Shown: piece by piece, positions 38,541-54,448 of the stretch
Layout: the number at the start of each line of letters is the position of its first letter
How positions within the stretch are numbered: the first letter of the stretch is position 1
Assembly (NCBI GenBank): GCA_039545335.1
Contig: BCIN01000007.1
Location: forward strand, 248,001 to 312,000
Reading direction: 5' to 3'
Length of the DNA stretch: 64,000 nucleotides
Origin: Kondoa subrosea
Taxonomy: Eukaryota
Made by a program: the position numbers and the translations under genes
Notes under the pieces: generated by a model
What the model saw: only the letters and a program-made list of their open reading frames with translations
Database searches by the model: none
What the model was told of the DNA's origin: nothing

Positions 38541-41049
38541 TTAATACATTGTCGCTTGAATGTCCAGCAATACGAGCTCCAAATCTTGCCAGTCTGTTAA
38601 GATGTCAGCATATGCTTCTTCTCGCCCACAGTCCACTCACTAGCTCCAATCTTGCACATCACCTTCCTAATCACTTCTTGACCCTTCTTCCTTTCCACTA
38701 ATTTACACATGACCGGCTTTCCTCCTTTACTTCCAAAAGTATACCTAGCATTTCGATCTTCCGGTTTCTGAGCTTGAGCTGAAAACTTATTCAGTGGTAA
38801 ATCGATTCTCTCCACAGCCACAGCTAAAGGTTGAGCGTTGACAATATCCGCAATTTCTAGATCCAGAATATCGTATTTGTTTGCCTGATAGGCTGTTGGA
38901 AGAACTTGGTTGTCGAGCATGATAGTAGGTGAAAGCATTCCGCTGCGATCGATCACGCTAGGTCGAGGTTTCTTGGAAGCGGAAGAAAGAGTGTTGTATG
39001 ATTGTTTAGGCGTAAGAGAAGGACGAGCCATTGAACTGACACGAGCTGCTTGTGCGCGAAGAGCTGGTTCGGGGGTCAGGATGGAGGATCGCCCGCCCAT
39101 GGATTGACGCGACGGCGTCCGAGCTGTACTTGTTGTCCGAGCAGTTGACGCTCGTCGAGCTGAACTAGTGCTTGGGACAACAATGATTTCCTGATCGCGA
39201 TTCGGGTCGTGTGAAGCTCCGCGATGACGTGGTAGGGTTGCGAGAGTCTTTGAGCTGATCGGAAGACTGCTGCTCAAATATGAATTGGAAGGAGTAGGAG
39301 AAACAGCTCGTTGCATCAAAGGAGGAGTCGTTTCGTTATCCGAATCGTCATTTTGCATCCCAAATGGCGTTGCACTCCTGAATCGCCGTACTCTAGGTGA
39401 CGGAGCTGGTATCTTTGATTCGGGAGAAGAAGGTCTTGGCTTAGATTTAGGCGAAGATTTTATTCGGTCATCATTTGTGGAAGGTGCTCCAAGCGATAGG
39501 CGAGATATGGAACTGAGGCCAGATGGAGATATCGGTCGTTCTGGATTATACGCGGGACGAAGCAGAGGCGAATCAACCAGAGCTGGAGAAAGACTTCGAG
39601 AAGGTGTAGAAAAGGTGTTTGAAGATCTCGGAATGATGCTTTTCTGCTCATCTTCCGCTGCTCGACGAGTTGAAATGTTCCATTTTGGTTTGTTTGGATG
39701 TTGAGAAGTACTGGCGACAGGAGAAGAAACAGATCGTTGAGAGGGTATAGAAGTGAAGATATTGCTATTGCGCGATCCTGGGGTGTTGAAGAAGGATTTG
39801 CTGTCTCTTGGTCGCATACTGTTGTTGCTTCTTTCTGGACTATCGTAAGCTGAAGGAATAGCTGGAACAGGAGGAGCTGCATTTGAAAGGCGATTTGTGA
39901 GTCTGCGAAATGCACTAGGTGAAGATCGGCCCAAAGATGAAAAGGAGAGTGCTTTAGATGCTATAGTGCCTTCTTTTGGCGGCGTAGCTGCTGTAGAGGC
40001 AGGCGAGCCATCGATAGAATGATCTCTGAGTAGCTCTTCCGTCGAATCCATCTCACGCTGTACCCGCTGTATACGGTCTTGCAAGCTCCGATGTCGGTTC
40101 TTCAGGTCAGCATATTTGCGTAGAACCTCTCCATTCTTCGTACTCCGTTCTTGTATGCCTTTACCCAGAATATCAAGCACTCTGGCTGTACTCGGCTCAT
40201 AATACTTCCGCTTCGCATGTAGTGCTGCCAGAGAGGAGTGAGTATTTCTAACGCTCTACGCGATGGGATCTCTCTTACATCTATGCAAGCTAATATAAGT
40301 CTGTAATGTTGCTTGAATACTTTCAGAATCTCGTAGAGCCATATAAGTAGGTTTCGTCTGTGCACCAGAAGAGGAAGATCCAGTTGAAGCAGAGCCGTGC
40401 CTTTCTCTACCAGGTTTAGCTGAATTGTCTGATCGATTCACATCCCAAACGAAGTCGTGACAGGCAGCGAGAATCTTGTCTAGCGAATTCATCATATCGT
40501 CTGCTTGCTGGGCGACCGTCCTGAATACGATCAAGTACTTGTCTAGGTTGGCATCATGAGGAGCTTTAACTACGATTCTCTACTGTTGAAAGTCTTGATT
40601 CACCTTCTTTGAGTTCTTCGTGAAAGTTCTGTTTCGATTGAATCAGCTCCCGTAATTAGAACCAGATCAAGGGAGGAGCTGACATCCGCTTCTGCTTGAG
40701 CTTTGGCTATCTGCTGCCTGATACGATCATGTTTCGAAGCCAGATTCGCCTGATCCTCTGCTGGCAACAGTCCGATCCTAGTCTTTATCGCATCGCTCTC
40801 CCGAGTCACAGTCTCCACTTTGGCGTTCAAACTGCTCAGAGCTTCGTCTATAGGTTTCTGACTTCCTTCACTTGCTGAGATTGAGGCATGGCGAAGCTCT
40901 TGCAACTCATACAGATTAGCTGGTAATTCTCCAACAGTCATTTCAAGCGAAGCAAGATCAGCAGCGAGCGAGAGCATGGACAATTGAGCATCATCTTGCG
41001 TTGAATCATGAGACAAATAGCTTTGAGACAGCACAGCAGCGGATGCCAT
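38541..41049 (-). CDS. KAR9: Kar9-like microtubule-cortex linker with C-terminal GAR/GAS2-like region
   Basis: KYLIVFRTVAQQADDMMNSLDK and KRKYYEPSTARVLDILGKGIQERSTKNGEVL resemble the Kar9 core; Ser/Pro/Arg linker containing SKIP; C-terminus YQANKYDILDLEIADIVN...YTFG...CKLV...KVMCKIGA/NWQDLE. Confidence 0.75.
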
Positions 41050-51549: not shown

Positions 51550-52967
51550 ATGCGATTCTCACTGAGTTCCCTTTTAGTGACAGCTCTAGCTTGCGTCTAC
51601 ACAGGTTCGCTCTCTCTTTCCTCTCTCATTCTTCCATCACATAAGGATGTCTCGTTCTGATTCCATGAATTCAGCCAATGCGGCAGATGCTAAAGGTCCT
51701 ATCATCACCAACCAGTGCGTTGATCACACATCAATACGCGTTCCCATGAGCTGACGAAATGTTCTCAAGAGTATACTTTGATATGAAGCATGGAGATAAA
51801 GATCTTGTCTGTGCCCAAATGACCTAATGCTACTAGAAATCTGGCTGATCAGTACGACAGGGAAGAATCGTAATGGGTATGTTCTCGCACATGCTCTGCG
51901 GACGCGCGCTAATAGAAAGAAAACAGGTCTTTATGGCAAGGTCAGCCTTTGCGAGGGATCATATGATTATATTCTCAGCTATTGGTATGACAGACTGTAC
52001 CTAAGGTTCGCCCTTCCTTGTTTTGCTGATATAACCAGCTCAGAACCAATTGGGGAGAACAGACCGCAGAGAACTTCGTAAAGCTCGCTACCGGTGAAAT
52101 GGGTTTTGGCTACCAAGGCTCTACTTTCCAGTAAGCTTGTCTCTGATGATTCCTAAGTGTTCGCTCACGAGATTTATAGCCGTGTGATCAAGGACTTCAG
52201 TAAGCTGCATCGCATCCTCGGACAGAGTTGTCAGTGAACTGTCGGATTACAGTGATTCAGGGAGGAGACTTCACGAGAGGCGACGGAACTGGTGGAAAGG
52301 TTAACTTCACTTAATCGTATCGCTCTGTATGGTACTCAAACTATTTGCAGTCCATCTATGGCGCTAAATTCCCAGATGAGAACTTCAAGATCAAGCATGA
52401 ACGTGGATCTTTGTCAATGGCCAACTCAGGCAAAGACACCAATGGATCGCAGGCCAGTCCTAGATTTTGCTTGTCTGGCGATCTTATCCTGATATTTTGT
52501 CACTGTAGTTCTTCCTTTGCACTAGTGCGTCAAGTACTGCAACCGTTAAGCACTCGCTGACATTATTTGTCAACAGTCAAGACTAGCTGGTTAGATGGTT
52601 AGTCTTCACCGTTCTCATCCTCGTTAACCTCGGCTCATACGCGATTCGTATACAGGTCGTCATGTCGGTATGTGAATCCTTTAAGCAAGCTTGTCGCTTG
52701 TTCCTGAGGCTTCGTATGTACAGTCTTCGGTCGAGTTTTAGAAGGCATGGATGTCGTTGACACTATCGAGAACGTACCTAAAGGAGCTGGCGACAAGCCA
52801 AAGGAAAAGGTCATCATAGTCGCTTCTGGTGAACTACCTCTACCAGAAGAGAAGTAAGCTTTCTTTCGATTTCTTCTGTACTCTTGTTATTGTGATCTGA
52901 TTGTGTATACAAAATTGACAGAGTGGATGAAGAAGGCAAACCTATTCCTTACAGAGGAGAACTCTGA
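51550..52967 (+). CDS. CPR5: ER-lumenal cyclophilin B (peptidyl-prolyl cis-trans isomerase)
   Basis: Signal peptide [99 protein letters not shown]; ends RGEL* (HDEL-like); about 13 introns. Confidence 0.96.
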
Positions 52968-53078
52968 CTATATCTAGCTGCTTCACTCATCGTTGTCGGT
53001 TTGCTAGCTTGGCAATGGTCAGCGAGGAAACAAAACGGTCAATATAAGAAGGTGGATGCATACGGTCTTTCAGCATAA
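52965..53078 (+). other. Candidate stop-codon readthrough element (TGA CTA) with in-frame 36-codon membrane-anchor extension
   Basis: GAA CTC TGA CTA TAT CTA GCT GCT TCA CTC ATC GTT GTC GGT TTG CTA GCT TGG CAA TGG ... GCA TAA, encoding LYLAASLIVVGLLAWQWSARKQNGQYKKVDAYGLSA*. Confidence 0.6.
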
Positions 53079-53148
53079 AGAATTATTAAATTGCATTATC
53101 AAATGATACAAAATATTTTACATGCGGTCTTTATCATCAGGTCTAAGG

Positions 53149-54448
53149 CTATAGAGGTGGTAGCTGCTTGTTTTGCAATCCTGTTCTGGCTTTGATAAGG
53201 CTTAGAATGGTATCGTTGACTGGAGTTTTGATGCTGTGTCTCTTGCCAAGGCTTGCAATGTAGCCCTAGACTCAGAGTCAGCTGTAACCATGATCAATCT
53301 CATCATACGAACATTGATGAATTCGCTTTGGATCGCAAGATTAGGATACTTGAAGTATTCGGACTGGGAGAAACTCACATTTCTGTTTCTGTCTTGCCTG
53401 ATCTGATATCAGAGCACATACTAGAGATGTTTGCTCCCATTGGTCCGAGATTCCTCAGCATCTCTTCATATAATTCTTGCGCTGTCATGCCATGCAAATT
53501 CATGATCTCTGGTTCTTCAGCTTGGAACACTTGAACCGCTTCCAATACTATCGATCTGACTAAATCCTTTGCGGGTTCGCTCTCAAGTAAAGATCCGTTG
53601 CGTATATTGAGGACAGCGGTGAGAGGGTTGACCACAGCATTCATTAGTAGTTTCTTGATTCTGATCTGCTGGAATTGCTGCCATGGTAAAAGAGAGATAT
53701 TGAGATCGGTAAGAGAATCCAGAAGATGCATTAGAGGCTGTAGGTCCGTCTTCAAAAGATCTGGGGGTATTGCATAGGAGATTGACCCTCTTGCTGCCCA
53801 AACAGCGTGAAGATTAGGTCGAGGAGATTTCATATACTGCATGAGTACTGAATAACATCTCAGGATGAATTATTATCGACTTACAACTCCTTGTAGTATC
53901 GATGTAGGCACTATCCGGGGCATTTCGCGCTCGCTGAACACTTCTCTCTTGAGCATTTCTTCCACACCCATGCCATTTCTGTTCAGAGATCAGGTGGATT
54001 AAGCCTCGTGCAACTCGAGAGACCAGATGAAAGCTGACTGTAGAAGTACAAGCACTGAAGAAGCGCTTATACGCGACTTGAGCTGTCTCAAGCTGGAAAA
54101 TGATGATTGTGCTTTACAGCAAACCAACAGGAGTTCGATAGGAAGAGAGCTAGCAAAATCTTCTTGACGGGAGTCTACAATACTATTGATAGCTTCGCCA
54201 GGGATTTCGAGAGTGACAGTCAAAGGCTTCTCGGGCTCGTCGCGAGAGAGCAGAATAGGTTCGAAGCGAGCTCTTCGAAGATGATGAGCGAATAGAGATC
54301 CGATACTATCAAAGGCACTGAGACAAAGACTGATTAACTCAGAAAAGTCTTACGCTCCGACTACAATTCGAACATGAGGAAAAGTAGGGCGGAGGAAAGG
54401 TCAAACGCCTCACATACCTCCAAGAATGCGCACAGAAGGTACAGTCAT
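53149..54448 (-). CDS. PAN5: 2-dehydropantoate 2-reductase (ketopantoate reductase, ApbA/PanE family)
   Basis: MTVPSVRILG/VGA/IGSLFAHHL, LLVCCKA, LLQ/NGMGV, KKLLMNAVVNPLTA, NISSMCSDI, TETE, TPVN. Confidence 0.88.

Follow-up and report, generated by a model that had tools for sequence, protein, structure and literature searches.

What does it mean that the stop codon of a secretory-pathway enzyme is followed, in the same frame, by what reads like a membrane anchor? The question is raised by a cyclophilin B gene in a 64,000-nucleotide (nt) stretch of the Kondoa subrosea genome (contig BCIN01000007.1, positions 248,001 to 312,000 of the forward strand), referred to here as the window and numbered from its first letter. 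The coding sequence (CDS) of this gene closes with the codons for PYRGEL, a TGA and, directly behind it, CTA, after which the frame runs on into a hydrophobic stretch. An earlier note on the same DNA, made from its letters alone, had proposed that this one gene specifies a soluble and a membrane-anchored form of an endoplasmic reticulum (ER) cyclophilin. As far as homology can tell, what stands behind the stop is no random 3′ untranslated region (3′UTR) but a genuine second C-terminus of cyclophilin B, and an old one. As to how it is joined to the enzyme, we lean, if only slightly, towards readthrough of the UGA-CUA, which would here replace an ancestral splice switch and give lumenal and membrane-anchored isoforms.

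An ER-type cyclophilin B gene that ends at TGA-CTA

The gene model that we built comprises 15 exons on the plus strand (51550–52967), with a CDS of 636 nt and a product of 211 residues that starts with a hydrophobic, signal-like segment, continues with a PF00160 domain and terminates in RGEL. Two of its exon pieces, from exon 10 (29 bits) and exon 14 (28.7 bits), matched Pfam PF00160 (Pro_isomerase) above the gathering cut-off of 21.7 bits, and the match extended to position 156 of the 159 in the profile. According to BLASTP, the product is 77% identical over 192 residues to P0244 from Sporobolomyces johnsonii and 71% identical to P0239 from Atractiella (P numbers denote proteins and fragments from our searches, L numbers metagenome loci). 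Both alignments span to both C-termini, and exon 1 encodes a hydrophobic N-terminus that can be aligned with those of the orthologues. The closest full-length proteins among the matches listed are named cyclophilin B relatives from Pucciniomycotina; rust proteins are present among the 120 matches listed for the word-based search described below and absent from the best 30 BLASTP matches. The domain match and the full-length collinearity with named relatives identify the gene, at the level of sequence, as an ER-type cyclophilin B, the fungal PPIB orthologue, in line with what the earlier note had called it.

Exon 15 (52922–52967, plus strand) encodes the end of a linker, RGEL and the TGA (52965–52967), and is homologous to the ...EG[KN]x[VI]P[LFY][RH]xEL-stop of the short forms of the family. 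The stop is followed by CTA (52968–52970) and then T, the whole (52965–52971) forming the UGA CU(A) leaky-stop context, and the frame stays open for 36 codons (52968–53075) up to a TAA at 53076–53078; the ending PYRGEL-TGA-CTA and the 36 open codons read exactly as they had been reported before. Both in Ustilago maydis, a basidiomycete, and in human HeLa cells, the UGA CU(A) context drives readthrough (PMC4207609), and the human high-readthrough consensus is UGA CUA, one UGA CUA T example having tested high (PMC4359377). Within the window, CTA follows 28 of the 2864 TGA triplets (1.0%), and at least 36 open codons follow 16.7% of the 5828 stop triplets. The open frame is therefore unremarkable by itself and the TGA-CTA context is uncommon; the evidential weight lies with the homology of the tail.

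The gene is unusually fragmented, with 14 introns of 49–70 nt distributed over the 636 nt of its CDS. Tiny internal exons lie between 51861 and 52667: exons 6 and 13 measure 12 nt each, exon 5 has 14 nt, and exons 4 and 11 have 16 nt each. Intron 10 (52453–52508) is of the GC-AG kind, with the donor GCCAGT, and is situated between the conserved ...NGSQ and FF... codons, where no GT alternative preserves the frame.

The tail and the two C-termini of fungal cyclophilin B

Read past the TGA, the tail opens with 17 uncharged residues closed by W (LYLAASLIVVGLLAWQW, 52968–53018), a predicted membrane span whose best 15-residue window reaches a Kyte-Doolittle (KD) hydropathy of 2.26. A basic stretch and a predicted cytosolic tail follow (53019–53075), with YKKV at 53043–53054, and the layout is the one that had been described from the letters alone. 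By alignment, the tail is collinear, in the order span, aromatic residue, basic residues and QY[KR]KV, with the tails of P0242, P0226, P0257, P0222 and L007, all of them long forms that carry a membrane span behind the common domain. A hidden Markov model (HMM) derived from 21 long tails, run against all 2061 open reading frames (ORFs) of at least 20 residues in the window, ranked the tail ORF first, with an E value of 0.26 that is not significant window-wide and corresponds to about 1e-4 when counted for a single ORF specified in advance. In a single BLASTP comparison, the tail matched P0242 with an E value of 0.012. A word-based search with exon 15 plus the tail (P0001) found nothing among the longer proteins to which it was limited, the "near" length class lying outside the search.

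The composition of the region points the same way. The GC content is 45.4% in the tail and 46.4% in the exons, and drops to 24.2% in the AT-rich sequence at 53079–53140, immediately after the TAA that closes the extended frame. In addition, the GC content per codon position fits the pattern of the CDS in the frame of the tail only, and the tail thus looks like coding sequence. The membrane anchor and the YxxPhi-like motif that the earlier note had placed behind the stop are both conserved and collinear with the tails of the long forms.

To place these findings in the family, we examined the best 150 of the 3349 matches (E up to 1e-3) that phmmer, run exhaustively, gave for the fragment P0002, and the best 120 of the 6980 that a word-based search gave for P0041, a protein from Cronartium. 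EL or DL closes 64 of the 120 listed for P0041; once five CGEL ends that belong to the domain of other cyclophilins are subtracted, 59 with xxEL or xxDL remain (RVEL 17, RAEL 17, HAEL 13, HVEL 4, and others). The short forms terminate after ...EG[KN]x[VI]P[LFY][RH]xEL, precisely the position at which RGEL stands in the window, and P0039 likewise has RGEL as its C-terminus. Because 59 of the 120 listed relatives end in this manner at the same place, the stop is ancestral and not a fresh nonsense mutation, and RGEL would be the clade's version of the [RH]xEL end, a putative ER-retrieval signal.

The long forms share the common sequence up to ...EG[KN]x and then depart into a linker of 40–100 residues, a span, basic residues and Y-[KRS]-[KR]-[VLM], often with ...EDLEK at the end. 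A hydropathy filter flagged 14 long forms in the P0041 list of 120 and 11 in the P0002 list of 150, and Yxx[VLMI] comes behind the span in 13 and four of them, respectively; two of the 11, P0015 and P0115, look like reads into non-coding sequence, and the threshold missed at least P0257 and P0276. Named long forms include those of Cryptococcus neoformans (334 residues), Pleurotus ostreatus (317 residues) and Tricholoma (261 residues). For many forms of both kinds, the source is a JGI contig of about 1–1.4 kb with a full intron-free ORF; we take these contigs to be transcripts. Some fungal PPIB entries of a protein knowledgebase also come with a long and a short isoform. The soluble and anchored pair that had been proposed for the single gene in the window fits the two forms seen in many fungi.

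Several observations on individual long forms belong here. The Agaricomycete long forms (e.g., P0018 and P0226) end either in ...DLEK or in ...DLEKRVA or ...DLVKRVA, and these differing ends may reflect another alternative end at the extreme C-terminus. The rust long models from Puccinia striiformis, Austropuccinia and the similar P0185 (P0183, P0185 and P0192) diverge before the Val codon discussed below and have no clear hydrophobic span; their long form may have degenerated or been mis-modelled. P0115 (...SDEL-W-hydrophobic) has the same layout as the window and is probably a gene call with TGA read as Trp that enters an AT-rich untranslated region, and we did not use it as a parallel. We likewise gave no weight to P0002 (...IPFR, then YVSSFLVGAS-stop), in which an intron may cut off the start of a membrane span, or the reading may enter an intron that begins with GTATGT.

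How the two ends are made elsewhere can be read in a few loci. Of the 80 loci kept from a metagenome scan, the fungal ones with a tail that were read by eye are L001, L002 and L007; by their matches, most of the others look bacterial or like other cyclophilin types, and none of the 80 is the source contig of P0002, the closest fragment. In L001 and L002, two ascomycete-like loci read at the DNA level, an 82-nt phase-1 intron lies directly after ...PAE-G. Retention of this intron yields I-H-A-E-L-stop; when it is removed, the protein continues through an acidic linker and a hydrophobic span to a basic end. Dozens of ORF fragments whose last residues are EGIHAEL, EGIHVEL or EGTHAEL fit the same retained-intron design. 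L007 carries the linker and the anchor in one continuous frame, without a stop. Among the basidiomycetes, the Puccinia striiformis proteins P0207 (220 residues) and P0183 (248 residues) agree at the C-terminal end to ...GNK and diverge just before the Val, one earlier internal stretch also differing in their alignment, and the short and long sets of Agaricomycetes part at the same point before Val. From this point of divergence, we infer that the long-form intron of basidiomycetes has its donor in the GT of the Val codon. The two-ended design of cyclophilin B is ancient, and what usually produces it is the retention or splicing of an intron, not readthrough.

The window departs from this design. 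It has an ATT codon for Ile (52944–52946, plus strand) where most basidiomycete orthologues have Val (GTN), so that the putative ancestral donor is absent from it; Sporobolomyces, Atractiella and P0002 also have Ile at that position. The sole GT of exon 15 lies at 52923, and there is no linker exon; the anchor, with no linker in between, opens in frame with the first codon behind the stop. The anatomy of the locus, the homology of both of its ends and the context of its stop are in this way established.

The proposed readthrough, its alternatives and the surrounding sequence

The readthrough that we favor, with its level, the topology of its product and the destinations of the isoforms, is predicted from these features and would proceed as follows. 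Termination at the TGA (52965–52967) would release a soluble lumenal enzyme ending in RGEL. A fraction of the ribosomes would pass the UGA in its UGA-CUA context, insert a near-cognate residue and translate the 36 further codons. In the extended product, RGEL would be buried and followed by one membrane span, by a basic stretch that stops transfer and by YKKV within a short cytosolic tail, which would make it a type-I membrane-anchored isoform. The anchor would be the ancestral long-form tail, which other Dikarya join by removing an intron whose retention supplies the xxEL-stop. Since the donor and the long linker are gone from the window and the anchor stands directly behind the stop, readthrough would assume the role of the splice switch. 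Four observations favor this reading: the in-frame relation of stop and tail, which readthrough needs and splicing does not, the full leaky context, the hydrophobic L-Y-L codons that follow the stop, and the missing donor.

Several results weigh against it. RGEL is non-canonical when compared with KDEL and HDEL, and its function as a retrieval signal is suggested by its conservation; the E value of the tail HMM falls short of significance across the window; and a stimulatory RNA structure was looked for downstream of the stop and not found (z 0.09), so that the level of readthrough would depend on the context alone. The most serious competitor of readthrough is alternative splicing, in which a phase-1 donor would be spliced to the AG at 52976–52977 and readthrough would have no part. 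Splicing starts from the higher prior, since in L001 and L002, the two ascomycete loci that could be read as DNA, the orthologous switch works by splicing. In addition, basidiomycete short and long pairs (P0207 and P0183) diverge at a single point. The sequence in the window offers some of the required signals. A branch-point-like CTGAC (52964–52968) lies 10 nt upstream of the TAG acceptor candidate that ends at 52977 (2.5 bits for the plus-strand candidate at 52964–52977), which needs a phase-1 donor to enter the frame of the tail. One such donor, the GTGAAC that the earlier note had located near 52829, exists at 52829–52834 (5.1 bits) and would define a 149-nt intron to 52977 (route A). We identified a second in-frame route, beyond that one, from the GC donor candidate GCAAAC at 52936–52941 (3.1 bits), with a 42-nt intron to 52977 (route B). 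Both routes keep the frame, and route B would be a miniature of the 82-nt phase-1 switch of L001 and L002, its retention giving ...RGEL-stop. On a scoring matrix that is rough, being drawn from 14 introns only, the real splice sites of the gene score 2.0–8.6 bits for donors and −3.7 to 9.1 bits for acceptors; both donor candidates fall inside the range of the real donors, one of which is GTTAAC and one a GC donor.

Against these signals stand the lengths of the introns, 149 or 42 nt compared with 49–70 nt for all 14 real introns, and the acceptor candidate itself, whose score is matched by 14% of decoy AGs. The GCAAAC of route B lacks the T at +2 and the G at +5, the latter a base that 13 of the 14 real donors have. 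In the product of route A, the span would follow the last strand of PF00160 with nothing in between, and exon 15 would be lost together with the D-E-E-G-K linker motif that is kept in every listed long form. Route B would leave a weak 14-residue hydrophobic stretch: with the L-Y-L codons between the stop and the AG at 52977, the best 15-residue KD is 2.26, and without them it falls to 1.49, compared with 2.3–3.3 in the homologous spans. Splicing, moreover, accounts neither for the in-frame relation of stop and tail nor for the full TGA-CTA context. We regard alternative splicing as a possible but rather unlikely source of the anchored form. As had been argued before, simple alternative 3′ splicing does not produce the tail. 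Used with the normal donor (phase 2, ending at 52853), the AG at 52976–52977 does not lead into the frame of the tail, and the only acceptors compatible with that donor lie at 52954 and 53026, neither of which gives the anchor; we rejected exon skipping from the same donor, as 52954 again leads to ...GEL-stop and 53026 skips the span. Exon 15 itself holds a pyrimidine-rich, acceptor-like CAG site (AG at 52953–52954, within 52940–52955) in phase with the normal donor. Its use would shorten the linker, and the end would still be GEL-stop.

Two further explanations do without any switch. In one, which we consider decidedly unlikely, the tail is an unexpressed relic: the donor was lost with the change from Val to Ile, a deletion moved the anchor exon beside the stop, and the gene makes the soluble RGEL form only, the tail being 3′UTR that has not yet decayed. 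The absence of the putative donor from the window agrees with this account, as do the nearest named relatives, Sporobolomyces and Atractiella, which also have Ile and are annotated as short forms only. The Puccinia striiformis long model without a clear hydrophobic span indicates that long forms can degenerate, an open frame of 36 codons arises by chance behind 16.7% of stops, and the HMM match of the tail is weak (E 0.26). Several features speak against a relic: neither the span nor the basic stretch nor the YxxPhi-like motif is damaged, and all three are collinear with those of expressed long forms; the tail is in frame with a stop in an uncommon leaky context; the compositional boundary coincides with the TAA of the tail and not with the TGA; and GC per codon position shows the coding pattern in the frame of the tail only. 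According to the other explanation, a sense codon belongs at this place, the TGA being an assembly or strain error, and the protein would always carry the anchor, like that of L007. Constitutively anchored cyclophilins B do exist (L007, P0033, P0065 and P0092), and the fragment P0002 may run from the linker directly into a hydrophobic stretch. Yet the stop lies exactly at the [RH]xEL-stop of dozens of orthologues, after a matching xEL, and an error would have had to recreate this by chance; because the stop sits where the orthologues stop, we regard an error as highly improbable.

Downstream of the cyclophilin B gene, a convergent ketopantoate-reductase-like gene occupies 53202–53869 on the minus strand, with a match to Pfam ApbA_C on 53378–53869. 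The last exon of this gene probably reaches to about 53202, and because only some 124 nt separate that point from the TAA of the tail, the 3′ ends of both genes likely overlap. Farther away, an ORF on the minus strand (38600–40255) matches the Pfam family KAR9 (yeast cortical protein) with an E value of 1.1e-7, in keeping with the fungal origin of the window.

Implications and comparison with known systems

Put in its strongest form, the proposal is that, in this basidiomycete lineage, programmed UGA-CUA readthrough replaced an ancient retained-intron switch, and that one unspliced mRNA gives rise to a lumenal xxEL form and a type-I anchored form with a buried retrieval signal and a conserved YxxPhi motif in its cytosolic tail; for this full statement we regard the case for and against as evenly balanced. 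Fungal readthrough isoforms are mainly known as tails with a type 1 peroxisomal targeting signal (PTS1), and the present case would broaden the roles of UGA-CUA. If the proposal is true, readthrough alters membrane topology and the address within the secretory pathway instead of adding a peroxisomal signal, and the locus would be a second example, beside the peroxisomal enzymes, of splicing and readthrough as interchangeable routes to the same isoform pair. Whatever the mechanism, the cyclophilin B of Dikarya has two conserved C-termini, one soluble with xxEL and one with an anchor and a Tyr motif. In the literature searched, no paper was found that deals with a long and a short form of cyclophilin B in fungi or with its readthrough, and a survey of peptidyl-prolyl isomerases in sixteen fungi makes no mention of two forms in the passages searched (PMC1618848). 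A Dikarya-wide, two-form cyclophilin B, of which we found no description in print, would thereby come to light, and with it the questions of what role a membrane-tethered prolyl isomerase plays in the ER or beyond it and why the ratio of the two forms would be regulated.

The retrieval-like end has a relative in Aspergillus niger, whose CYPB was reportedly described by Derkx and Madrid in 2001 with the ER retention signal HEEL. Both are fungal ER cyclophilins B with a non-canonical xxEL, the ending in the window being RGEL, and that work, to go by its title, concerns the soluble form only. A membrane segment in a secretory-pathway cyclophilin is shared with Saccharomyces cerevisiae Cpr4, where the span is putative (PMC1618848). 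Cpr4, however, belongs to another orthology group found in Saccharomycotina only, and no alternative soluble form or stop switch is described for it in the text of that survey (PMC1618848).

The UGA-CU(A) readthrough cases with a PTS1 (Ustilago maydis and human; PMC4207609, PMC4359377) resemble the window in the same UGA followed by CUA, in the in-frame targeting extension, in the basidiomycete setting and in needing no downstream RNA structure. They differ in that their readthrough was demonstrated, whereas here it is deduced from the sequence, and in what the extension would do: in the window it would consist of a membrane span and a cytosolic motif and would mask an ER-retrieval-like signal. 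The base at +7 is T here and not the G that is linked to the highest levels of readthrough.

The closest comparison is with the short and long cyclophilins B of Dikarya (L001 and L002; P0207 and P0183, P0222, P0262 and P0226). The gene in the window belongs to the same family and shares with them both kinds of C-terminus and the order in which the elements follow one another, and its tail is homologous to theirs. What sets it apart is that the Val/GT position is ATT, that the linker of 40–100 residues is gone and that the anchor follows the stop in frame.

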